Source of the DNA: Octopus sinensis
Lineage: Eukaryota
Reading direction: 5' to 3'
Assembly: GCF_006345805.1 (NCBI RefSeq)
Contig: NC_043011.1
Coordinates: 59,842,464 to 59,906,463, forward strand
Length of the DNA stretch: 64,000 nucleotides
Below the pieces are notes generated by a model. The model ran no database searches, was not told the DNA's origin, and saw nothing but the letters and a program-made list of their open reading frames with translations. The first letter of the stretch is position 1. Every line of letters starts with the position of its first letter. The translations under genes were made by a program, and so were the position numbers. Below are positions 1 through 35,431 of this stretch, in pieces.

Positions 1-1462
1 TCACGCTTGTGTGTGCAATTCATACTTTTCACAGTTGCGTTTGGAATTTATGCACTTCTTTCGTTTCGCTCTTCTGTCATGAAATACATGCACGCCATAC
101 GTTTCACGCTTGTGTATAAAATTCATGCACTTCAAACGTTTAATCCTTGTGTATGAAATTCATGCACATCACATGTTTTACTCTGGTGGATAAAATTCAA
201 TCCCTTCATAAGTTTCATGCTTGTGCATGAAATTCATGCACTTCACATGTTTTACTCTTGTGCATGAAATTCAATCCCTTCATAAGTTTCACGCTTGTGC
301 ATGAAATTCATGCAATTCATGTTTTACTCTTGTGCATGAAATTCAATCCCTTCATAAGTTTCACGCTTGTGCATGAAATTCATGCACTTCACATGTTTTA
401 CTCTTGTGCATGAAATTCAATCACTTCATAAGTTTCACGCTTGTGCATGAAATTCATGCACTTCACATGTTTTACTCTTGTGCATGAAATTCAATCCCTT
501 CATAAGTTTCACGCTTGTGCATGAAATTCATGCACTTCACATGTTTTACTCTTGTGCATGAAATTCAATCCCTTCATAAGTTTCACGCTTGTGCATGAAA
601 TTCATGCACTTCACATGTTTTACTCTTGTGCATGAAATTCAATCACTTCATAAGTTTCACGCTTGTGCATGAAATTCATGCACTTCACATGTTTTACTCT
701 TGTGCATGAAATTCAATCCCTTCATAAGTTTCACGCCTGTGAATGAAATTCATGCACATCAAATGTTTTACTCTTGTGCATGAAATTCATGCACTTCACA
801 TGTTTTACTCTTGTGCATGAAATCAATCCCTTCATAAGTTTCACGCTTGTGCATGAAATTCATGCACTTCACATGTTTTACTCTTGTGCATGAAATTCAA
901 TCACTTCATAAGTTTCACGCTTGTGCATGAAATTCATGCACTTCACATGTTTTACTCTTGTGCATGAAATTCAATCCCTTCATAAGTTTCACGCCTGTGA
1001 ATGAAATTCATGCACATCAAATGTTTTACTCTTGTGCATGAAATTCATGCACTTCACATGTTTTACTCTTGTGCATGAAATTCAATCCCTTCATAAGTTT
1101 CACGCCTGTGAATGAAATTCATGCACATCAAATGTTTTACTCTTGTGCATGAAATTCATGCACTTCACGTTTTACTCTTGTGCATGAAATTCAATCCCTT
1201 CATAAGTTTCACGCTTGTGCATGAAATTCATGCACTTCATACCTTAAAGGCTTGTGTACGAAAATCGTGCACTTCATGTGTTTCACTTTTTTGTATGAAA
1301 TTCAGTAACTTCATACGTTTGACACTTGTGGATGAAATTAATGCACTTCATACCTTAAAGGCTTGTGTACAAAAATCGTGCACTTCATGTGTTTCACTTT
1401 TTTGTATGAAATTCAGTAACTTCATACGTTTGACACTTGTGGATGAAATTAATGCACTTCAT
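1..1462. repeat. Tandem satellite, 37-bp monomer arranged as 74-bp A/B dimers and terminal 111-bp trimers
   Basis: Alternating CTTGTGCATGAAATTCATGCACTTCACATGTTTTACT and CTTGTGCATGAAATTCAATCCCTTCATAAGTTTCACG (37 bp each). ACCTTAAAGG recurs at 1241 and 1352 (111-bp period). Units are more diverged at both edges. Confidence 0.95.
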
Positions 1463-1699
1463 ATATAACAAATAAACATTACTACATATGTTGAGTAACT
1501 TTTCCTTTGCTTGTGCATATATTTACGTCTTTATTATTTTGTATTTAAATAAATATTCTGGGAAATCTTAAATTCTTGAATTTGAAATTCAGTCCCGTTG
1601 AAGAATGGAAAAAAATTAGGAATCAAATTGGAACAGATTGAAATCGTCGACAAATAAAGAAATAAACTTTCCTGCATGTTTATAAAGCAATAAAGAAAC

Positions 1700-1793
1700 A
1701 TGTACACACACACACACACCTATACACATATGCATAAATATATGGGGGTGGGACGAGCGTGTATGTGTGCATATATTCATATGTATGTGTATG

Positions 1794-1845
<52 letters not shown>

Positions 1846-1986
1846 TACATACATATATTCATATATATATATAGATATACATATATACATGTATATAAAT
1901 GTGCATATGCATATATATGTACAGATATATTTATTTGCATATGTATGCGCATATGAATATATATAGAGATACACACACACACACAT

Positions 1987-2042
<56 letters not shown>

Positions 2043-2100
2043 TGACACACATGCGTATCCGAGTATATATGCATATGCGTGTGTGTATGCTACTTACATA
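1700..2100. repeat. (TA)n/(CA)n microsatellite block; similar blocks at about 16380-16770, 17990-18185, 37450-37770, 39360-39700, 42090-42470, 44900-45125, 45800-45975, 47040-47415, 62447-62760
   Basis: Directly visible dinucleotide runs. Confidence 0.95.
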
Positions 2101-3399
2101 CATTACACCCATTTACAACAAAACTCCAATTAGCGCAGCTAAATTCGTTTCCTGTGAAAACGTCCGTTGAATATATTAATGCATAAGAAATGCCATAATT
2201 GCTTCAAGAACGTCCTAAATTCTTGGCTGAAGTTTTTTCTTTTGCGTATTTTATTTTATTTTTTCATCATATTTCAAAATAAAACTAAAAAAATTAACGA
2301 GGATTCAACTGATCGATCCGCTGAATTACCTGCCCCAGAATTAACATCTGAGTGACTGAGTATTCCACAGACATCTTCAGACGGAATTCGCATACAACAG
2401 TATGTTACAAGACTGCACGCTTATAATTAATGGCAGAATCCATTTGATGACTTTCCACACAGTTTCCGTTGAGCTAAGGAACTTCTGTTTGTTCTCTGAC
2501 TGAGATAGATATTATCTATTTAAAATAATAATTAAACTCATTATCGACGACTTAATTGGGTCGTGTTTTCTGTCTTTGATTCTATCTTTTCTTCATGCTT
2601 TGAAATAAATTTTCTCAAAAGCGAATTTAAAAGTACAATGACACAGAGATAAATAAAGATTTGGTTTCGCAGACCATAAGAACCACCTCGAGGTGAGAAT
2701 TGGGTTTCGTATTTGAGAGAGAAGTATTGTCGACAATTCCATCTGTGCCGAGATGCTGCCTCCGTGAATAATATATAACGAATTAGATTTACCTTCACCA
2801 ATGTTCTTAACACAAGAACTGACTGAATGTCTCTGCTAGAGCTCAAAGACTTCCGACCAAAGTTGCTGTCACTACGAGGTCGATAATAGAAACTTATTTC
2901 ATTTATATAAAGCAGTGAACTGTCACAACCTTTAGAGCACTGTCAAGTGGTATTTCTTCTGAAATCATTATGTTCTGAGTTCAAATTCTGCCGAGGTCGA
3001 CTTCGTCTTTCGTCCATTCCGGATTGATAAAATCTTGTACCAAGATTTGAAACCATTATTTTCATTTGTATTCTTGTTTTATCATGTCTCAGTCCCAGCA
3101 GCCTGTAATATTTATACATTGAGATCCATTTCCCACGTTTCAAACGTAAAAGGCAAAGTCCGCGTTGATGACAGCATGTTTATTCCCTTTGTATATACAC
3201 GGGTGTGCGTGTATTAATATCTCTTGGTGTTTTACTGAGAAATCATGAATTACAGGACTCAATACGTAAATGTAGTGTACTCATTAATATGTAGCAATAT
3301 CGTCTCTCAGTGCTATCTTCACTGTTTGAGAAATGTATTAAGAATAACCTCGGTCGAGATTACAAACATCTTTGGCTAGTTCAACATTGTTGTAAACGC

Positions 3400-3560
3400 T
3401 AATTCGATTGGTTGACACGTTGGTCTCTACTACGCTCGCACCGCTGGTTATAACTTGGCGCGATTTGCCTCCGTATTTTCGCGCCATAGTGCCAAGCAGC
3501 CAATCACAGCTTTCCATTTCTGAAGTTCACTGGGAGCCTGGTGAACCTTATAAATAAGGT
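3400..3560 (+). promoter_or_regulatory. Pol II core-promoter-like block: CCAAT boxes, inverted E2F-like sites, TATA box
   Basis: GATTGG 3406-3411, TTGGCGCG 3455-3462, TTTTCGCGCC 3476-3485, CCAAT 3500-3504, TATAAATA 3549-3556; locally CpG-rich in an AT-rich background. Confidence 0.55.
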
Positions 3561-3594
3561 TTCTCAGAAGAATATTCGTTTTAGGTTTCCAGTC

Positions 3595-5325
3595 TTTGAG
3601 TAAGTTATTTGGAGTTATTCTGGTGTGTTTGTTTTGAGTGAAGAGGTTGTGAGTTCGAGTTCGTTGGAGGACGTGGAATGTTTTTTTCTTGAAAATGCAA
3701 GAGCAGACTTGCGCGCGAGCGGCGGGCGGAGGCCTGGTTGCCGGTGAGCTGGAGATGGAGGAGGTGGTGGTCGAACGGAGGACTTTACAGAAGTGTTTCG
3801 ACGGTTTGAAGAGGGAGGGTGGCTGCGTGAGAGTCGCACCGTCCGAGGAGGAGGAAGGCAGTGCGGAGAGGCGTACTATAGCGTGCAGGACGTGGTGTGT
3901 GGAGTCGAGGAGGGTTGAAGTAGCGGAGATGAAAGAGGTGGAGGAATGTCTGAAGGAAGTTGAGGGTGAACCCACATTTTTCAAAGGAGGAGGGAGGTAT
4001 GCCGCGGTGGTGGTATGTTTTGAAACGGAGAGTGAGGCAGGGAGGAGCGCAGCAGGACTTTTGAGGTCGGATGGGTGGACTTTGCTACCAGGTTGCTGCG
4101 GAGGGAGGGCAGTGAGGGTGAGAATCAGTGGAGTCTCGCCCGAATTTGATATGGAAGGGTTGCTGGCAGCAGTGCTGTTTAGCTGCAAGGATGATGTGGA
4201 AGTACTGAAGGTGGAGAAGTCAGCAGAGGTGAAGTGGTGGGGATATACGGTGCAGGTTCTGGCACACATTACCGTGCGAGACCTGTACAACATCCCGGAG
4301 GAGCTGGTCTACCCTGACGAGACACGGCTCCGAGTTGTGGTAGAGGGAAGACCCCCAATCTGCTACAATTGTAAATCGAGGGGCCACATGAAAGATGTGT
4401 GCCCGCGGGAAAAAACAAAAGCACCAGAGGTTGTGATAGAGGAATGTAAAGACGCGTGTGTGGAGGAAGCGAAAGCGGAGGAAATACGAATGGAGGAGCA
4501 GTTAAATGAGGAAGAACGAGCGAGTGCAGAAGAGGAAAAAACAGAAGACAGGAAGAGATCAAGGGTGGAATCACCACCGAAAGATCAGAGAAGGAAAGGA
4601 ATCAAAAGCAAGATAGCAGAAGAGAGAGAAGAGAAAACATACAAAGAACAGGAAGTGGAGGAGAAGGCGAGAGAGCGGCCAAGGACAGAGTTTGAACAAG
4701 AATGGGAGACAAGAGTGAACGAGCAATTGGAATCGTGTAAATATGGAAGAAGGCCTACAGGGAAAAACTTGAAGGCAGTTGTGATGTATATCAAGAATAC
4801 AGAAGTGGAGAAGAGACTTGTAGGTAAGAAAGGGTTGGTCAGGGTGAAGGTGAACCCAAAACTGTATGGTGACGACGTGAAAGGCGTCATTATAGACAGA
4901 GAGACATATATAAAACTAAAAAAGATGTTTAATGCTATGCATATAACGCATTATGTGCGGTATGATAAATTGCCAGATGTTATAGACCAAACGGACCTAT
5001 TGGATTATATGACGGACGAGCGTCTAATGTAGAATTGTTAATTGTAAAATGGTATTGTGAACGGGAATGTATGTAATGTTAACATGTAAAATTGTAAAGT
5101 TATTGTGCTTTGAACTGAAATATATGTAACTGTAAAATTGTATTGGAATATATGAAATGTAAAATTGTATTTTAAACGGAACTGCGAGTTGGGGGTTCGT
5201 AAGCCGTTCCATCTCATTACATATAATTCATTTTTTACTTCATATTTTATTTTTACTTTATGTACCCCATGTCCCGTCTTGTAATGTCCCCCTCTTCGTG
5301 GCCCCTTGTGGGTAATAAAGAAATG
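3595..5325 (+). mobile_element. ORF1-only (gag-like) non-autonomous non-LTR retroelement, L1/Tx1-like, with 15-bp TSD
   Basis: Direct repeat TTTAGGTTTCCAGTC at 3580-3594 and 5326-5340; one long ORF; about 290-bp 3' UTR ending in AATAAAGAAAT; no RT or endonuclease between the repeats. Confidence 0.8.
3689..5032 (+). CDS. ORF1p/gag-like nucleic-acid-binding protein with CCHC zinc knuckle (first ATG at 3695)
   Basis: 447-aa uninterrupted ORF; RVVVEGRPPICYNCKSRGHMKDVCP is a CX2CX4HX4C knuckle, preceded by an RRM-like region (VRVRISGVSPE) and followed by an E/K/R-rich region, as in L1/Tx1 ORF1. Confidence 0.85.
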   Translation: MKMQEQTCARAAGGGLVAGELEMEEVVVERRTLQKCFDGLKREGGCVRVAPSEEEEGSAERRTIACRTWCVESRRVEVAEMKEVEECLKEVEGEPTFFKGGGRYAAVVVCFETESEAGRSAAGLLRSDGWTLLPGCCGGRAVRVRISGVSPEFDMEGLLAAVLFSCKDDVEVLKVEKSAEVKWWGYTVQVLAHITVRDLYNIPEELVYPDETRLRVVVEGRPPICYNCKSRGHMKDVCPREKTKAPEVVIEECKDACVEEAKAEEIRMEEQLNEEERASAEEEKTEDRKRSRVESPPKDQRRKGIKSKIAEEREEKTYKEQEVEEKARERPRTEFEQEWETRVNEQLESCKYGRRPTGKNLKAVVMYIKNTEVEKRLVGKKGLVRVKVNPKLYGDDVKGVIIDRETYIKLKKMFNAMHITHYVRYDKLPDVIDQTDLLDYMTDERLM

Positions 5326-5480
5326 TTTAGGTTTCCAGTCCTTCTTAGGGCGAACCTCTGACCACACAGCTCGTCTTAGGTTTTTAGTTCTTCTCAGAGC
5401 TAAACCTCTGACCACACAGAGCTCGTCTTAGGCTTTTAGTTCTTTTAAGAGCTAAGTCTCTGACCACACAGAATACTCGA
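5326..5480 (+). repeat. About 51-bp minisatellite, 3 degenerate units, split by the ORF1-only insertion
   Basis: TTAGG...CTCTGACCACACAG...CTCG repeated three times; a unit-end-like AGAATATTCGT lies just left of the upstream TSD. Confidence 0.8.
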
Positions 5481-6699
5481 CCAAGTTCCAGTTTCGAGGC
5501 AGGCGACCACCATTAATACAAGATGTTACAGATACCTCTCATACTGTTAATGTGAAATATCACCATGAAGAAAACGGTTACAAGATATCTATAACTAGAG
5601 AAAAATAACCAAGCAGAAAATAATGAAGAAGCAGCAAGAACCAATCGACAAACATCGAAGATTTAAATTGTACACGAGACAACTACAGATTCAACTATAG
5701 CGGTTAGGTGAAATTCTCGCCACGAAGAAAACGGCTACAGAAACATGTCTGGAAGTATATTCATATCAAGAGAAAGATAAACACAACGAGTGATTCAATT
5801 AATCTCAACTGCGACACGCAATATCTTGATATGGAAGTCTGACGCTGTACCTCTTGAAACGGTAAATCAATTATCTGTTCTTGGGTTCTAGTTTCTTCTA
5901 AGAACTACCTTAAGCCATCTGTTATTACCTGTTGCCAAGCCGATACCAACAACATTAACTGTGAATCAAATCCCATCGACAATTCACTGGTCAGTACCTT
6001 TTTACGCCTAACGAACACACAGACACAAAAACATGCGAACACTTACAAACTTCCAACATCAAACATGATTGTAAAATATGTAAAATAAATAATGTATATA
6101 TCTTAAAAAGAAATCTTGTTGTCATTCCAAACTTATGTGTATTGCCGCTGCATGTAAAATATAGTCAGTAAAATATATTAATAAGAATAGGATCACGTTA
6201 CTATTTTTATAAATATATTATAACTGAAAGGTTCGCATTTTTAGTACTCTCATACGTTTAGATGTTAGACATGATTACTAATGACTAAAAAATTTAAGAA
6301 CTTTTTATGAAGTAAAGAAAAAATAATAAAATTGAATTCTGTGCTGTGTTTTCCTTATAATTCCTTGATTTTCAAATTTATAATCACGCTTCATTTTATG
6401 TAATAGTTGCAACCGTTGGAAAGTCCACGTGTGTTTTACGAATTACTAAAAAAAAAGATATGCTTTATCTTTGTTTTCTGTTTTTAAAATTATCGTGCAA
6501 GTAATACGTGCAAAAACCTGATGTTTCAAGTTCACCATTTTCCATTTAACTTCTGGCTTTTGTAAAACCGCATACAAAGGGGATCATTCTAACAACAATT
6601 ACCATGAAATTGCGTTAAATATAAAAAAAAAACACTTCGAAATAAACCAGGTTTGTACTCACACAAAAGATACTTAGCTCCGTGAATACAAGGCCCAAG

Positions 6700-6910
6700 C
6701 AGTTCTGTTCTTTTATTCAAACCATTACTGCTTCTAAATAAAATTCAAGTTATTTGCTCAAGCAAATGTCACAGCACATATTTTTTCTTTATTAGAAGCT
6801 ACCTTCCCTGTATGGTTGTACCTTATTTATAATTGGCCAGGTAATTTTGAATTCAAGAGGACTCGTCCAATAAATTTCAACGAAGTCATAGCGCATTTTA
6901 AAAATCAGAA
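6700..6910 (+). mobile_element. Possible highly decayed hAT transposase C-terminal (dimerisation domain) remnant
   Basis: Translated pieces TITAS, SYLLKQMSQ and RPINFNEVIAHF loosely resemble hAT TVAS..YLRSTMSQ..IDFDDVIDEF. Confidence 0.25.
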
Positions 6911-7439
6911 CTGGCTAATGAATAGCGGCAAAATACAATTACAAAATGTAATTTTTGTAAAATGGGCTGTACTCAGTTTTGGGTGTCCTTCGATAATGTA
7001 TAATGTAGCTGTAATGCCGCTTCCTTGTGGTGTTGTTTCATTGTCAAATTAAAAGTGTAAGAAAAGCAAACTCTAACAATTTTATTGAACGAGTTTTAGA
7101 TGGAAAACAAAGCAGTAGAAATTGCGCATATCAATCATTTGGCCAGGAGATTGTCAATGAAAATACGATAATCAGTTGGTTATGTTTCTGCTTTAATATA
7201 TTTGTATTTTTATTTATCTTTTATCTTCCTTCAAGATCCAGATTTGTGCAGATGTCATACCACGAACCGGTTCTGCCGTCTCTATGTGTATATCTTTGTC
7301 ATACAAAAACTGTCAGATTTGAAGTTTTAACTGGTTTTAGCAAACAATAATTGTCTTTTGTTTAGTGGAATGCTCAAAGCTACCTTCGTGTTGCAGCAGG
7401 CTTCACTAATGCAGTCATGGTTACATGTAGAGCGTCGTC

Positions 7440-8070
7440 AATGTGTGTTATAAAGTAATAACTGCCAATTCGGATACTGCTTAATTTCATTTCGGGATTC
7501 CTTTGGACGTATTCGAAGTTTTTAGCAGGTCAAATCCTGTGATGGTCTATTAATAACCATTACCACAATGGTCGCATATACTGCTCTGCTGGTTATACAA
7601 CTTTGCTTTTGTTACGTCATTCCATCAGATAGACACTCCTTCAAGCTCCAAACAAATTTTGAAAGCGAGGTAGAGTTACTCCTTTTCCCCTCTATCCTTG
7701 AATATGAAATGCATCGAGCTTTGAATGTATATTTGGTAAGGCTGTCCCATCATCAGCTCCTTCTCGAAGCACCTATTTCTTGTGGTGAAGTGTAGGTTAC
7801 TTTAGAATGGGGCATACGTAAGTAACAAATGGGTAGAGCTTACAATAATTAAAACACCCTTTAAATATATGCATGCGATATACTTTTTCCATTCAAGGTT
7901 GGTACAGGTTTTTTTGTCTTTTTGAAAGCCAAAGTGAAGCGTGGGACAAAAATAATTGAGAGACACTGCTCTGGAGAATAGCTGTCGACATATTTGGTTG
8001 CAAAGTCATTGAGGGTAGTCATTGGTTCTAACTTTCTTAATGTACTTAAAAATTTCATCAGAGATACTTG
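7440..8070 (-). mobile_element. Penelope-like element relic, GIY-YIG endonuclease region
   Basis: Minus-strand translation across stops and frameshifts gives KFLSTL, VDSYS, PTLNGK, SLTKYTFKAR, NSTSLSKFVWSLKE, W..VTKAKLYNQQSSICDHC, colinear with the PLE pattern KFL..VSYS..CPLNGKC..GLT..FK.R..NST.LSKYIW.LK..W....A..Y....C.LC. Confidence 0.7.
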
Positions 8071-8825
8071 AGAAATGCAAACACAATGAGAAGCATCTAT
8101 TTATGTAACTGGAAAACATCGCCTTTACCGGACTAAACCCACACAAATATAGACATCTGTAACTGATGCATTTTAGACTCTATTTTTTAGTCTATTTCCT
8201 TTTCCACCTTTCATCTCATTGGTTTATTTTTTCTTCTAATACTCACCTTCTTCATTTTTCACTTTTATCATATACTTGCTTTATTTCTTCTCACATTTTT
8301 CTTGTTGATTACATTTTCTTTGAGTACCGACGCCTATTTCCAACATCACTCAAACCCACGTGGTCTTCTTCTCTCCCGACTCACACATATCAACCTCTCT
8401 GAATCCCGCTTTACGCAATTTCTTTCTCAGGCTTTCTCTTGACTAAATTTTTTCCGACACTAAAAAAATAAACAGACAGTTAAACTGGTTTACTTCTATA
8501 ACAGAAGACTTATCTACTTTGACGGAAGCGGAAGTTTGAAAGAAAAATATAAGCATTATTTCAATATTTGAAAAACAAATAGACATTAGGTAAGCATCCT
8601 TGGGTGGCCACCGCGGGTTTCGCTGCGTCTGTTTTATTTCCTCTCGTTATCAGGTGTTTTCTTCCTGGATGTACACATACTATCAAACAAGATCTGGACA
8701 AGGCACCTTAATTTCTAAACGTAGTGTAATAACATTCTCATCTTATAAATGCGTATCCTATAACCAGGAATCCGATATCTGATGTCCAGGGATGAAAACA
8801 ACTGGAAAACTCGTGAATACAAAAA

Positions 8826-9380
8826 AGGGTTGATGCAAAAATGATTACAGCTTTTGTAATTTGAAACTTTAATGCTTAATTTAAGATAAATTTTAATTAA
8901 ACTATATTAATACCGTTGTGAAGTGCAGGTTTCTTATTGTTGATTTATGCTGAAGATGTTGTTCCTCTCTTTATTCTTGTCAAATTAAAAATGGAACATA
9001 AGCTTATTCAAACAATTTTATCGCACGAGTTCCGAATAGAAAGTAAAACTGCAGAAAGTGCTCGTAATATCAACCAAGCACATGGCGGCGATCTGGCAGG
9101 ATCTGGCAGAAGCGTTAGCACGCCGGGCGAAATGCGTAGCCGTATTTCGTCTACCGCTACGTTCTGAGTTCAAATTCCGCCGAGGTCGACTTTGCCTTTC
9201 ATCCTTTCAGGGTCGATAAACTAAGTACCAGTTACGCACTGGGGTCGATATAATCGACGTGATCCGTTTGTCTGTTCTTGTTTGTCCTCTCTGTGTTTAG
9301 ACCCTTGTGGGTAGTAAAGAAATAGGTATTTCTAGAGTAGAAAAGAATATCAACCAAGCATTCAATTTGAAGATCAATGA
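8826..9380 (+). mobile_element. Mariner (Hsmar1-like) 5' end: TIR plus transposase N-terminus, interrupted by a SINE
   Basis: GGTTGATGCAAAAATGATTACAGCTTTTG resembles a mariner TIR; ATG at 8991 gives MEHKLIQTILSHEFRIESKTAESARNINQA, continuing with F after the insertion. Confidence 0.7.
9081..9345 (+). mobile_element. tRNA-derived SINE family B, young-looking copy with 15-bp TSD
   Basis: TSD AATATCAACCAAGCA at 9066-9080 and 9346-9360; B box GAGTTCAAATTCC; central CCTTTCATCCTTTCAGGGTCGATAAA..AGTACCAG (Deu/Nin-like domain, from recall); CpGs retained. Confidence 0.85.
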
Positions 9381-11065
9381 AATAATAATAATAATAAACG
9401 TGCAGTTCAAGTGAGTCCGCACGCACACACAAACACACACACACACACGAGGGGCTGGATTTGTTTTGGCTTTGAAGAATATAACATTTCAGGAGTTTTT
9501 TTTCCATATATTTTCAGTCGTTTGATAAAACTGAACCATGATGCACCCAAATGCATATCTGAAACAGCTGTAAGCCTATGTTAAATAAATAAATGTATAT
9601 AACCCATTACTTCTGTCTATTATGTGTGTGTGTGTACGTGCGTGCTTGCATGTGTATGCATGTATGTATATTGTATGTATATGTGCGTGTGTGTGCATGT
9701 ATGTGTATTGTGTGTAACAACAACTGAAGACAAAGTGCTTCCATTATACAAGTAATGTTCTTCATATCTACTCATCCGTGAAAACATGTCCAGCCAGGTA
9801 GAAATATTACCTTGCTTGGAAACAGGTAAAGGTCGGTGACAGGAAGAGCACCTGACCACAAAAAAATGCTGCGTCAATTAACTTCGTTTGAACTATGCAC
9901 GAAAACGTGAACAATAAAAAGATGACGATAATGACGACGGTGTTATTGATTATAATGATGATGATGACGCGCGCGCGTGTGTATGTGTTTGTGTGTGTGT
10001 TTGTGTGTGTCCTTTACTGGTGTATATTTATGAGAAAATAACCAATAAACTGGAGCATTCAAAGAAAAATACCTTTTGATTTTTATTCCAACTAAGCAAC
10101 ACAAACGTTCTATTATCACTTTCACCTTTAGATAAAACAGTAAAACCAGTGATTGGTTTGTTGTAGCTCGACAGCAAACCAATGGAAAGATGCCATTATT
10201 GTTCATAAATTCTAACTTTCAGAATTCCAGAATACGTAATTCAGTCAACCGTATTGGTTATGAACAAACTAATATATGTTCTTTTAACCAAAAAATCTTT
10301 TCACAGAGGAATAAATCAGTTTTCTGCAAGGAAGAAGTGGAATCTAACAGTCATTGATGCTACTTCCATCAGATTCTGCAGTTTTCTGTTTAATTTTAGC
10401 ATTTTTGTATCAAAGAGTCAAGTTAATGTCACCAAGCCCATTGTAGTAAAGGGGCAAGTAGCTAATTAATTAATAATAATTAGGCAGGGAGAACTGGAAA
10501 TAAAGCATTAGCTTAAAAACTAATATAAATCAAATTTGATTTGGGCAAGTATGGGAGACAACTCTGAATGTGTTTCAGTTTTATTAAACCTCTTTTGCTA
10601 AGCATAGTCTTTTCTCTGCCCCTGTCAGGTTAGTGGTCAGGGAATCACTGTTTCGATGTACAATAATGTTTACACGTAGTTGTTAAATTATCATAATGTC
10701 TCTACATGTGGGTGCTCTCTGTATGAAGAATAACAGTCAAGTAAGGGCCATTCTCCCTACATTTATGCAGATGGTCTCCTTGAATAATTTTTAAACAGTC
10801 TTTTTTTATAAATTGCAGTGAACTGCGTTTCTCTACCTTAATTGGAGATATTCATGGCTGTCGTTGTCATTTAGTTTCACTAACCAAAACACCACCACCA
10901 CCACCATCACCAATGCTGCTTCCACTTCTACTTCCACCACCACCACCATCATCAACATCGTTTTAGCATCCACTTTTTCATGTGTCCATGGGACGGATGG
11001 GTGCTTTTCCAGTCACCAACCCGCACCTATTTCTAAGCAAGGTAATATATTCCCATGGCAGGGAA

Positions 11066-11412
11066 AAGGGTAAAGACCCGCTTCAGTCATGAATGACCAT
11101 GGGATTGCACCTAGAAAGTTCCCCTTTGAGGTACAAGTCCGGGCCAGGTTGTTTTTATGGAAGATCAGCAGTCTCCCATGCAAACCAGTTTCCTTTTTCC
11201 ATGCCACTGACATTATCCAAGGGAAAAGCAAAGAGATCGATTACAGCTTGGCACCAGTGAGACATCGAAACTCATTTCTACAGATGAGTGAAATGGAGCA
11301 ATGTGAAAATAAAGTATCTTGCTCAAGAACACAACACACAGCCTGGTCTTGGAATTGAATTCACTACCTCATAATTGTTAGCATGATGCTCTAACCACTG
11401 AGCCATGTGCCT
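11066..11412 (-). mobile_element. tRNA-derived CORE-type SINE family D; related copies at about 21860-22240(-), 24590-24735(-), 27800-28088(-), 51800-52070(+), 61340-61498(-)
   Basis: Minus strand TGGCTCAGTGGTTAGAGC (A box), GAATTCAATTCC (B box), TTCTTGAGCAAGATACTT core motif. Confidence 0.7.
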
Positions 11413-11682
11413 TGGCCAACCCACCGCAAAATCACCTTTGAAACTGTAGAGATGGTCTTTGTCCCAGATCCCTTTGCTGGGCTCTGTCCCTTCTTCTGAT
11501 TTTTTTTTTGCTTCAGCTTATTAATGTCCAATGTGACCCCCAACAATGCTTCTCTTTCTTTGCTTGCTTACCCCCTCATCTTACAGCCTTCAATGACAAC
11601 CCCCTTTTTAAAACAAACAAATAATGCTGAAGTGTTTTAATGATTTTCAGGACTCATTAACAGAGTTCTTTTTAAATAACAG

Positions 11683-12120
11683 GAACGGGTGTGGCTGTGA
11701 GGTAAGAAGCTGGCTTTCTGACCACAAGGTTCTCGGTTCAATACCACTGCGTGGCAGTTTTATGCAAGTGTCTTCTACTATAGCTTCAGGCTGACCAAAG
11801 CTTTGCGAGTGGATTTGGCTGATGGAAACTAAAAGAAACCTTTTATATATATATGTGTGTGAGTTTGTTTGTGTGTGTTTGTTTGTTTGTGTGTGTGTAT
11901 GTGTGTTCGTGAGTGTGTTTGTGTGTAAGTGTGTGTGTTTATACCTCGTCACCACTTGACAACTGGTGTTGATTTGTCTTCATAACTAAGGGGTTCAGCA
12001 AAAGAGACCGACATAATAAGTACCAGGTTTAAAAACAGGGGGTTGATTCATTCAACTACATGTCTTCTAGGTGGTGCCCCAGCATGGCCACAGGCTAATG
12101 ACTGACACAAGTAAAAGATG
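11683..12120 (+). mobile_element. tRNA-derived SINE family A (CORE-like, internal microsatellite)
   Basis: GTGGCTGTGAGGTAAG head, GGTTCAATACC B box, CAAGTGTCTTCTAC core, tail CAGCATGGCCACAG..TGACTGACACAAGTAAAAGA. Confidence 0.85.
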
Positions 12121-14319: not shown

Positions 14320-15100
14320 CCTATTGCTGAATGCTATGCTGGCATTTTTACTGCTGAAAATCCCAATGTACCTTCTTCCCCAACTCTGACATCATATTCC
14401 GTAACATCTGTGAAATTCACACCTGCAATGTTGTGACACCACATCAAGAATAAGCACAATTATGCCTCTCCTGGTCTTGATGGTGTTACTTATTTGCTTC
14501 TCAAACGTGGTGGGTTCTTCCTATTGCACCAGCTTTCTTCTTTTTTTCAATTCTGCCTTAACAACTCTGTCACTCCAGAGCAATGGAAAATTGCCAGTGT
14601 CGTTCCCCTGTTCGAAAGAGCTGATTGCACATCACCTGTCAACTACCGTCCAGTCAGCCTTACTAGCTGCATTGCCAAACTGATGGAGTCCTGTGTCAAA
14701 GATACACTCTGGAACTTTTGGAGCTCTCACAGCCTTATTCAACCCTCACAATTTGGTTTTATCCCTAACACTAGCTGCTGTAGACAACTCACCGAGTTTC
14801 TTGAGGACATCACCCGAGTTACTGATGGCAGCTCATGGGTGGATGCTGTCTACCTTGATTTTGCTAAAGCCTTCTACTCTGTGCCACACAAACAACTCAT
14901 GGTAAAACTCTCTGCAATGGGGGTGAAGGATGATCTCTATAAAATTCGATACGACAATGGTACATCCACACTTGGAATTTGCATCACCAGTCTGGAATCC
15001 CTATCTTGCTTAGCATATAAATCTCCCAGAAAATGTCCAGAAACGTACAACAAGACAAATACCCAACATCAGACATCTACCATACTCTGAATGTCTTTTT
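14320..15100 (+). mobile_element. CR1/L2-group LINE ORF2 (RT) fragment with large internal deletion
   Basis: SPGLDG..PEQWKIASVVPLF..NYRPVSLTS..QFGF..DAVYLDFAKAF.SVPH, then at about 14945 a jump to the post-RT motif TMVHPHLEFASPVWNPYL..ENVQKRTTR in another frame; YADD region absent. Confidence 0.88.
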
Positions 15101-24972: not shown

Positions 24973-25345
24973 TAGTTTTATTTTTATAGCGTGCTTTCAC
25001 TTCACTACCGAGCACAGCTCTGTGTGCCTTGGGTATGTGCTGTGATTTGTTGTGATGCTCTGATGGTTATTGTATGGAAAGTGTTCTGCGTAGGATGTGT
25101 GCAGTGCCTAGTAGTGCAATTTTCTGTATGTTATATGTGTTTGTAAGTCCTGGTGTTTTTGTTATGTATTTGTCTGAATATTTTTTTATCATGCCTAATG
25201 CACCTACTATGATAGGAATTGTTTCTGTTTTCAGATTCCACATTCTAGTTACCTCTATTTCCAGGTCTTTGTATTTTGAGAGTTTCTCCATTTCTTTTAG
25301 AGACACGTTGTCATCTGCCGGTATTGATACATCAATTAGAAAGCA
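24970..25345 (-). mobile_element. 5'-truncated R4/Dong-clade LINE: restriction-like endonuclease C-terminus plus 3' UTR, inserted in (TAA)n
   Basis: CFLIDVSIPADDNVSLKEMEKLSKYKDLEIEVTRMWNLKTETIPIIVGALG..QKIALLGTAHILRRTL, open to a stop at 25067; (TAA)n on both sides, the known Dong target. Confidence 0.85.
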
Positions 25346-25402
25346 TATTATTATTATTATTATTATCATTATTATTATTATTATATTATTATTATTATTA
25401 TC

Positions 25403-25433
<31 letters not shown>

Positions 25434-25528
25434 TCATTATTATTAATATTATTATTCAGGTCACTGCCTGGAATCAAACTCGGAATCTATGGGTTTGTAG
25501 CCCATGCTCTTAACCACTACGCCATATG

Positions 25529-26279: not shown

Positions 26280-26677
26280 TTCATTTGTATTATACGCACA
26301 AGGCCTGAAAGTTTTAGGGTGGGGGCCAGTTGATTAGACCGACCCCAGTACGCAACTGGTATTTAATTCTTCAACCCCAAAATATTGAAAGACAAAGTTG
26401 ACCTCGGCAGAATTTGAACTCAGAATGTTGTGGCAGATGAAATACCTATTTCTTCATTACCCACAAGGGGCTAAACACAGGGAACAAACACGGACAGACA
26501 AACGGATTAAGTTGATTACATCGACCCAAGTGCATAACTGGTACTTAATATATCGTCCCTGAAAGGATGAAAGGCAAAGTCGACCTCAGCAGAACTTGAA
26601 CTCAAAACGCAACAGCAGATGAAATACAGCTACGCATTTTGCCCGGTGTGCTAACGTTTCTGCCAGTTCACCACCTT
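26280..26677 (-). mobile_element. Dimeric SINE family B element; first monomer ends in the ORF1-element-type tail
   Basis: Two head/central modules joined at ATTTCTTCATTACCCACAAGGGG (26447-26470); ends in a (TTA)n tract. Confidence 0.8.
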
Positions 26678-26681
26678 AATG

Positions 26682-34822: not shown

Positions 34823-35431
34823 TCTTATAATTTCTAAATGTATTTTAGTGTGTCCCATTGCAACAAGCAACAAGCATCATCCACATAATTGGCAATGCTT
34901 GATGTTTGTATTTAAATACTACTTTGTTCCCTATGGGTCCAGATCAGTGGCTCTCTCAACTACAGTTTCCAGGGCCACATGTGACCATCAAGCATCCTTC
35001 TGCTGGATTCCCCCTTTAAATATAATAAATTTTCCTTTACTTGACTTGTATTTTACTTTTTGTGGTGTGGCCCCTTAAAGCCATCCAGATTTTGGATTTA
35101 TCCTTGTTATTAAAAAGGTCATCTTCTTATAATTTCTAAATGTATTTTACTGTGTCCCATTGCAACAAGCAACAAGCAACAAGCATCATCCACATAATTG
35201 GCAATGCTTGATGTTTGTATTTAAATACTGCTTTGTTCCCTATGGGTCCAGATCAGTGGCTCTCTCAACTACAGTTTCCAGGGCCACATGTGGCCATCAA
35301 GCATCCTTCTGCTGGCTTCCCCCTTTAAATATAATAAATTTTCTTTAACTTGACTTGTATTTTACTTTTTGTGGTGTGGCCCCTTAAAGCCATCCAGATT
35401 TTGGATTTATCCTTGTTGTTAAAAAGGTCAT
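34823..35431. repeat. Recent tandem duplication of about 300 bp
   Basis: 34823-35122 and 35125-35431 nearly identical; copy 2 has one extra GCAACAA. Confidence 0.95.

Follow-up and report, generated by a model that had tools for sequence, protein, structure and literature searches.

The window analyzed here is a 64,000-nucleotide stretch of Octopus sinensis DNA (contig NC_043011.1, positions 59,842,464 to 59,906,463), and near its left end the exact 15-mer TTTAGGTTTCCAGTC occurs twice, at 3580–3594 and 5326–5340, with no third copy in the window. The two 15-mers enclose 1,731 bp (3595–5325) made up of a 100-nt leader, one long open reading frame (ATG at 3695, stop codon at 5030–5032), and a 293-nt 3′ UTR with an AATAAA at 5314. 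No ORF2 follows this ORF1, and no long inverted repeat was found within the element. The frame measures 445 aa from the ATG, 447 aa from a TTG at 3689, and 459 aa from stop to stop; it is the longest in the window, where the next ATG-started frame, of 281 aa, is its own antisense. A first-pass annotation made from the letters alone had described a 1.73-kb segment between identical 15-bp direct repeats, with a short leader, one long CCHC ORF, a 3′ UTR with AATAAA and no ORF2, and all of these parts are present. The element is hosted by a second repeat (3291–6211), which has sharp TG…TA ends and 4-bp target-site duplications (TSDs) differing by locus. The features are the following.

3287..3290, + strand: left 4-bp TSD (AATA) of the host LTR, with its right copy at 6212–6215; other copies of the LTR have their own 4-bp TSDs
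3291..3594, + strand: 5′ part of the host solo LTR, starting TGTAG, with CCAAT at 3500–3504 and TATAAA at 3549–3554 (putative promoter); the sharp left end is common to 11 loci, and L033–L050 are empty copies
3580..3594, + strand: upstream 15-bp TSD of the element (exact repeat, junctions), likely also the 5′ leader of its RNA
3595..5325, + strand: ORF1-only non-autonomous non-LTR retroelement, subfamily A (genome matches, copy comparison, junctions)
3695..5032, + strand: ORF1, 445 aa (ORF calls, Pfam, predicted fold of the sister copy L011)
3695..4194 (element 101–600), + strand: dense block of A>G changes, at 54 of 162 conserved A's (column comparison)
4445..4694 (element 851–1100), + strand: smaller cluster of A>G changes, at 8 of 100 conserved A's (column comparison)
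5280..5325, + strand: 3′ tail, a 4-bp stem-loop then AATAAA (5314), common to the autonomous partner and to a very abundant short repeat
5326..5340, + strand: downstream 15-bp TSD of the element (exact repeat)
5327..5472, + strand: about 2.9 tandem copies of the 52-bp unit of the host LTR, with more in other LTR copies (repeat scan, LTR copies)
5341..6211, + strand: 3′ part of the host solo LTR, ending TTTTTATA (LTR copy comparison)

Elsewhere in the window lie a 37-bp satellite of 38.5 copies (45–1464), a decayed RT fragment on the + strand (14437–15090, Pfam RVT_1, E 1e-13), a short frame on the − strand that follows an AAT microsatellite and resembles a retroelement C-terminus with no significant Pfam match (25067–25486), and a 309-bp tandem duplication (34823–35431).

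A DNA search of the octopus genome with the element returned 436 candidates, 40 of which were scored and gave 90 matches; the counts of near-full-length units and of subfamily-A insertion sites cover these 40. Near-full-length units of 1,661–1,840 bp, without ORF2, make up 69 of the 90 matches, and 17 of these 69 keep an ORF of at least 430 aa. The family is multicopy with TSDs and includes 5′-truncated copies. Sorted by nearest reference, 48 units fall into subfamily A (unit L100m5422 was reassigned there after this sorting), 19 into B, and 2 into C, with references that are 81–88% identical to one another. The genome thus holds what the first-pass annotation had proposed to look for, many copies of the same length with locus-specific TSDs and no ORF2 in cis, and the window element is a member of a young, multicopy ORF1-only non-LTR family. 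A protein search with the C-terminal region of ORF1 extended the lineage (1,184 candidates, 150 scored matches down to about 45% identity). No endonuclease or RT lay directly 3′ of ORF1 in any of 20 fetched diverged relatives (ORF1 about 50–80% identical), and 18 of these 20 loci have a tail with AATAAA 170–550 nt past the stop codon. RT matches in four of the 20 loci were rejected as belonging to neighboring elements, being upstream, on the opposite strand, or past the tail. Among the 17 non-hypermutated copies with a long ORF, the dN/dS ratio ranged from 0.05 to 0.27 with a median of 0.15 (129 pairs with dS above 0.05); ORF1 is under purifying selection by this measure, one of the checks that the annotation had suggested. 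At one further locus (L069/L091, G000:C5 64.96 Mb), an ORF1-only unit is broken by an insertion of ~5.9 kb with Gypsy-like RT and RNase H frames.

In the ORF1 protein, Pfam shows a CCHC knuckle (zf-CCHC, E = 0.002, just short of the curated cut-off) and no other domain. The fold was predicted by AlphaFold for the sister copy L011 from a 14-row alignment, giving two beta-alpha domains and the knuckle with a mean pLDDT of 61, about 75–90 over aa 21–220 and low over the C-terminal region (aa 330–445). The layout predicted from this fold is an RRM at ~aa 48–137, a second RRM-like domain at 138–220, and the CCHC knuckle at 222–237, followed by an acidic/basic low-confidence region and then a C-terminal region common to the ORF1-only lineage. 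The top Foldseek matches of the model are tandem-RRM proteins (E about 2e-5), and VIA-align against the La RRM gave moderate scores (Z 8.6, rmsd 3.0, 83 residues aligned). The protein is therefore predicted to be an RRM-type LINE ORF1p with two RRMs and a CCHC knuckle and not a gag, the label it had first received. Its N-terminal half is 29–32% identical to six autonomous-type ORF1s. A word-indexed homolog search with the window protein found none among 7,996 candidates at E ≤ 0.001; an exhaustive search with an unedited sister protein found 366 unnamed relatives, so the first result reflects a limit of sensitivity. Contigs across the ORF occur in four runs guessed to be RNA, which give no evidence of transcription.

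Some copies of the host repeat are arranged as LTR, about 190 bp, LTR (L038, L046, and L050), with an internal part that begins TGGTGACCCC, a putative tRNA-Trp primer site. These copies, the sharp ends, and the locus-specific TSDs identify the repeat as the solo LTR of a small non-autonomous element. Its LTR–190 bp–LTR form, with a variable number of 52-bp units, is TRIM-like. The LTR is young, its top copies being 96–99% identical. A contig of run X7, present at single-copy depth, passes directly from 3285 to 6212, meaning that the whole LTR, with the element inside it, is absent there; empty-site alleles were among the checks that the annotation had suggested. Run X4 was rejected as an empty allele despite a contig that skips the element, because the short side of this contig measures 28 nt and the contig carries a variant also present in another LTR copy; this run has no cover over the edited block.

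Insertions of subfamily A occupy the same base of this LTR, about 30 nt past the TATA box, at 15 of 29 sites. They are always in the first 52-bp unit, though LTRs hold up to eight copies of the 14-mer, which suggests that the choice of site depends on upstream sequence. The remaining 14 sites have their own TSDs of about 12–20 bp, and at seven of them (two probably representing one duplicated insertion) a leader derived from the LTR stands between the TSD and the element. At locus L103, a 5′ extension resembles the target of locus L102; at some off-target copies (L054, L101, and L110) the leader is absent. The simplest reading of an LTR-derived leader at off-target sites is that transcripts would start in the flank and carry this tag to new sites, with the LTR as the putative promoter judging from its CCAAT and TATA motifs. 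The 15-mer is consequently a target duplication, as first annotated, but its target recurs within the LTR and part of it travels with some dispersed copies. That other copies might carry the 15-mer as part of the element had been named as an observation against the original reading, and the 5′ leader at half of the off-target sites is in part of this kind, without overturning it.

Head-to-tail arrays of two to six units with the local TSD between them occur at 13 of the 29 sites. Arrays L068, L097, and L099 mix clades and spacers, as sequential insertion predicts, and 5′-truncated array units abut the 3′ end of the previous unit directly; the near-identical units of L055 (99.8–100%) are explained by local duplication too. 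The upstream target copy at L002, L003, L024, L055, L067, L097, L100, and L103 often differs from the LTR by T>C, and these changes bring it nearer to a perfect complement of an LTR inverted repeat about 55 nt upstream (window 3529–3541).

A hammerhead in the subfamily-A target was considered and rejected by inspection. Rfam hits in window 1–12000 were mostly microsatellite-driven miRNA noise with no snRNA or rRNA target, and ARAGORN returned 0 tRNAs. The targets of subfamily B and of more diverged units (L065:4950–5040, L182, L183, L186, and L197) lie about 25–30 nt past a TATA-like run, with a hammerhead-like core shortly downstream of the insertion, in short repeats that are both tandem and inverted and presumably resemble Penelope-type pseudo-LTRs. 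One of six such loci gave an Rfam hammerhead match, which was below threshold (L197, 31.6 bits vs 52, E 4e-4).

The genome was searched for the element's tail joined to the LTR target, with the reversed pattern as a control. This junction gave 16 matches against 0 in the control, 13 being ORF1-only units and 3 being full-length LINEs (L087, L089, and L090). These 5.15-kb LINEs occupy the identical insertion base, in three LTRs other than that of the window element, and are 98.7–99.1% identical to one another; a fourth copy (L096) is located elsewhere, off that base. Their ORF2 matches Exo_endo_phos, RVT_1, and zf-RVT in Pfam, and its best PDB match is human L1 ORF2p (E 2e-61). None of the three copies in the assembly has an unbroken ORF2, that of L087 being split in the endonuclease region. 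The last ~46 nt of LINE and element are 89–91% identical and the N-terminal halves of their ORF1s 32% identical, with nothing else in common. The element therefore did not arise by a recent deletion within this LINE. The shared tail and insertion base make this LINE the likely helper of the element. The first-pass annotation had suggested looking for an autonomous L1/Tx1 sharing the 3′ UTR; one was found, even at the same insertion base, but it shares only those last ~46 nt. For a second LINE family, L093, the match to the tail is at least as good (95% over 41 nt).

Tx1 traits of the helper are its two ORFs, an APE endonuclease, RT, and C-terminal zinc motif, its relation to L1, and its target preference. 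The homolog search with its RT returned no named Tx1 reference, the nearest named match being an Argonauta hypothetical protein (60%), and we speak of a Tx1-type element on the basis of architecture and target preference. In the cluster L051, L052, L093, and L094 (G000:C9 70.96–71.08 Mb), several different full-length L1/Tx1-type LINEs lie head to tail, and ORF1-only copies are inserted in the 3′ tails of these LINEs.

Computed folds place a 4-bp hairpin ahead of AATAAA in the tail, and a hairpin of this kind, different in sequence, is retained in other subfamilies. Subfamily-B copies (L058–L063, L107, and L196) carry either of two unrelated 3′ tails, sometimes in one array, and both tail types fold into a 4-bp hairpin before AATAAA, which suggests tail swapping between helpers. 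Neither 30 of the 37 exact-pattern matches nor the ORF2 ends of all collected loci yielded a helper for the second tail type. Exact copies of a 22-mer from the window element's own tail number 20,750 in the genome, and some of them are spaced in tandem at 184–207 bp. Within the window, two SINE-like short repeats end in this tail, with near-matches of the 22-mer (9090–9330 on the + strand and 26445–26680 on the − strand).

Base changes were counted at 1,515 columns at which at least 90% of 45 unedited copies agree. At these columns, the window copy carries 65 A>G changes and 7 others, where the unedited copies carry 2 A>G changes at the median and 17 at most. Outside the dense block and the smaller cluster, none falls in element 601–850 and one in the A-rich 3′ UTR. 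Within the dense block, a 5′ G precedes 2 of the 54 changed A's vs 55 of the 108 unchanged ones (p = 2e-10). Of the 63 ORF changes made by A>G, 47 are non-synonymous, including changes at basic residues and at a near-invariant tyrosine around the first predicted RRM. A>G cannot turn a sense codon into a stop codon, which partly explains why the frame has stayed open. The ORF had been singled out as the only long intact one in the window: it is the longest and its frame is open, but with 47 non-synonymous A>G differences from its sister copies this hypermutated copy is a poor example of an intact element.

The same pattern was found in 6 of the 69 units, at five loci on five chromosomes and in differing blocks (40 scored of 436 candidates). 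Two adjacent L059 units have 92 of 93 A>G sites in common and were for this reason counted as one event. The count filter also let through a seventh unit, L063m5308, which has a mixed spectrum (36 A>G vs 38 G>A) and was set aside as diverged. The 5′ G is depleted in all six units (p from 3e-8 to 1e-16), and a 3′ G is significantly preferred in three of them (p = 0.59 for the window copy). The changes are strand-specific, with 0–2 T>C vs 65–73 A>G in the hypermutated copies. Sites overlap between copies more than expected (38 vs 26.7), and for 26 of the 65 window G's one or more "unedited" copies have the same base, indicating that hot spots or shared descent contribute. The closest relative of the window copy apart from A/G sites, L006 (8 differences), is edited as well, mainly further 3′, and 16 of its 19 edits in element 101–600 are common to the window copy; these could reflect either hot spots on RNA from a single master locus or a second transposition by a copy that was already edited in part.

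At the edited sites, the A state is common to subfamily B and partly to the autonomous ORF1s. The edited stretch is reproduced without a mismatch, and at roughly single-copy depth, by DNA contigs of run X1 (possibly the assembly's own sample) and of run X2 (from another study), except for one contig in X1 and X2 (3681–3789) with two differences from the window. The window G's are real DNA. The host LTR flanks and five copies of the helper family showed no A>G excess, and no source of double-stranded RNA for editing was found. In L068 (5270–5290), A>G changes also occur in the spacer and leader of a hyper-edited third unit, which suggests that these belonged to the edited RNA. Avoidance of a 5′ G is an ADAR signature (PMC2873906), and the 5′ neighbor weighs most in ADAR editing (PMC3113232). 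The A>G clusters would thus fit ADAR hyper-editing of RNA, likely fixed by reverse transcription. ADAR-type A>G hypermutation of retroviral DNA is a known parallel.

We consider it probable that the window element is a half-LINE copy at a preferred base of an LTR, likely copied in trans by the RT of a tail-sharing L1/Tx1-type LINE and likely edited by ADAR as RNA. The core of the first-pass annotation, a recently active, L1/Tx1-derived ORF1-only unit that would borrow its RT, has in this way held up on the copies with TSDs, the selection on ORF1, and the autonomous element with the same tail and target. One isolated deletion inside an ordinary LINE, or a host gene domesticated in the manner of L1TD1 and present once, could likewise offer a single long ORF under purifying selection with an N-terminal half homologous to an autonomous LINE ORF1. 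However, 69 near-full-length copies have their own TSDs, the radiation spans ORF1 identities from about 50% to 98% without an ORF2 in cis, identity between ORF1 and each autonomous counterpart compared is only about 30%, and the whole locus is absent in run X7; copy number and the empty site refute this explanation, to which we give almost no credence. By the same data, the element is neither a single-copy host gene nor one whose homologs all carry ORF2, the two outcomes named beforehand as fatal to the annotation (69 copies; ORF2 in 0 of 20 diverged loci).

The element could also be as described and owe its A>G excess to error-prone RT, GC-biased conversion, an old G-rich subfamily, or an assembly artifact, all of which we find improbable. 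The overlap of sites beyond chance, the 26 of 65 G's that recur in other copies, and the lack of a double-stranded partner RNA would be accommodated. Against this, there is no rise in T>C, a point against conversion; copies that belong to different clades have different changed blocks; the proportion of non-synonymous changes (47 of 63) is unlike the dN/dS of the lineage; the A state is common to subfamily B and partly to autonomous ORF1s; the G's are found in the DNA contigs of two studies; and avoidance of a 5′ G is a reported ADAR signature (PMC2873906). A further alternative concerns transcription, which might start from an internal promoter or, as in HeT-A, be driven from the 3′ end of the upstream unit, leaving the LTR as a landing pad only and unequal crossing-over as the main source of arrays. 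This is the rival we take most seriously, while still doubting it: 14 of the 29 sites lack the LTR, arrays included, some of them lack the leader, and the units in L055, and those in L056, are each other's nearest neighbors, but the leader at off-target sites derives from the LTR, the units of L068, L097, and L099 belong to different clades with different spacers, and 5′-truncated units join the previous 3′ end directly, as sequential insertion would give.

Under the half-LINE reading, the promoter of the host LTR would start transcription inside the duplicated target and yield an RNA with a target-derived leader, which ORF1p (predicted 2×RRM and CCHC) would coat in cis. The endonuclease-RT of the helper would then recognize the 3′ stem-loop and the AATAAAGAAA tail and carry out target-primed reverse transcription. 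Units would stack head to tail mostly by repeated insertion at the same site and sometimes by local duplication. Part of the RNA would form a double strand and be A-to-I edited ahead of reverse transcription. We also advance, tentatively and as a possibility only, a wider reading in which an old half-LINE radiation takes over the points where transcription of other mobile elements begins (in an LTR for subfamily A, in Penelope-like repeats with hammerheads for the remaining subfamilies), passes on its landing tag with the RNA, swaps 3′ tails between helpers, and has more than once fixed ADAR hyper-edited RNA in germline DNA (6 of 69 units), where an edited copy may have re-transposed. If true, RNA editing would be a heritable and cumulative mutagen of a living retrotransposon lineage.

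The family extends ORF1-only LINEs beyond mammals and fly telomeres. It offers a natural test of the need for ORF1p in cis, with a short repeat that has the same tail and no ORF1 (20,750 exact 22-mers) beside a 1.7-kb RNA that keeps a selected ORF1, and its matched helper, dependant, target, and empty site are material for studying Tx1-type site choice. If edited as proposed, the A>G copies would document that RNA was edited in cells of the germline or early embryo in a cephalopod-type genome, and would show a path from RNA editing to heritable mutation. Such copies would inflate estimates of transposable element age and could be mistaken for RNA editing sites in read mapping.

Our full-text literature search found no ORF1-only Tx1 family and no ADAR-edited LINE copies in cephalopod DNA; repeat databases were outside its scope, and the family may be catalogued there. 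Thirteen recently active L1-Tx1 families are reported from Octopus vulgaris, with no such element described in the accessible text (PMC13282606), and the term "Tx1" does not occur in the accessible part of PMC9115989. The A>G copies are like APOBEC "DNA-edited" retroelements in having clusters of one type of change fixed in integrated copies, with strand and neighbor bias (PMC4866542, PMC2873906), and unlike them in affecting a non-LTR element of an invertebrate, by A>G changes on its sense strand. The screen of PMC4866542 covered LTR elements and G>A changes, of which it reports none in 19 invertebrates, and ADAR is absent from its main text.

Like the crocodilian Tx1 LINEs, whose preferred targets lie in other transposons, LTR elements included (Tx1-8_Crp, Tx1-4_AMi), the octopus element prefers a site in another mobile element (PMC4494074). 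With Tx1/SINEU it has in common tail-sharing non-autonomous partners, tandem insertions around the TSD, and proposed transcription from the flank, but where SINEU has an snRNA head and no protein, the octopus element keeps a selected 445-aa ORF1 (PMC4494074). It resembles Drosophila HeT-A in being ORF1/gag-only, in using the RT of a partner, and in its head-to-tail arrays, and differs from the telomeric addition without TSD of that element by internal chromosomal insertions with TSDs and a predicted RRM-based protein (PMC5537684). The half-L1 HAL1 of mammals is a non-autonomous LINE derivative encoding ORF1p alone, and as in HAL1, ORF1p is the sole product here and the element moves as a unit (PMC5753468). 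Features of this functional class found in the octopus family are ORF1 alone, multiple copies with TSDs, and a selected ORF1 homologous to that of LINEs; mobilization in trans by an autonomous ORF2p would be likely from the shared tail and target. Unlike HAL1, it belongs to an invertebrate L1/Tx1-type clade with an RRM and CCHC ORF1 and prefers one site within another mobile element; it forms arrays, is young and polymorphic, has two alternative 3′ tails, and includes A>G hypermutated copies. Mammalian L1 ORF1p has a coiled coil-RRM-CTD architecture. The element works like HAL1 and is not a member of mammalian HAL1, given an ORF1 with two predicted RRMs and a CCHC knuckle. It is a real, young, site-preferring half-LINE with a likely helper, a HAL1-like variant in a Tx1-type clade.
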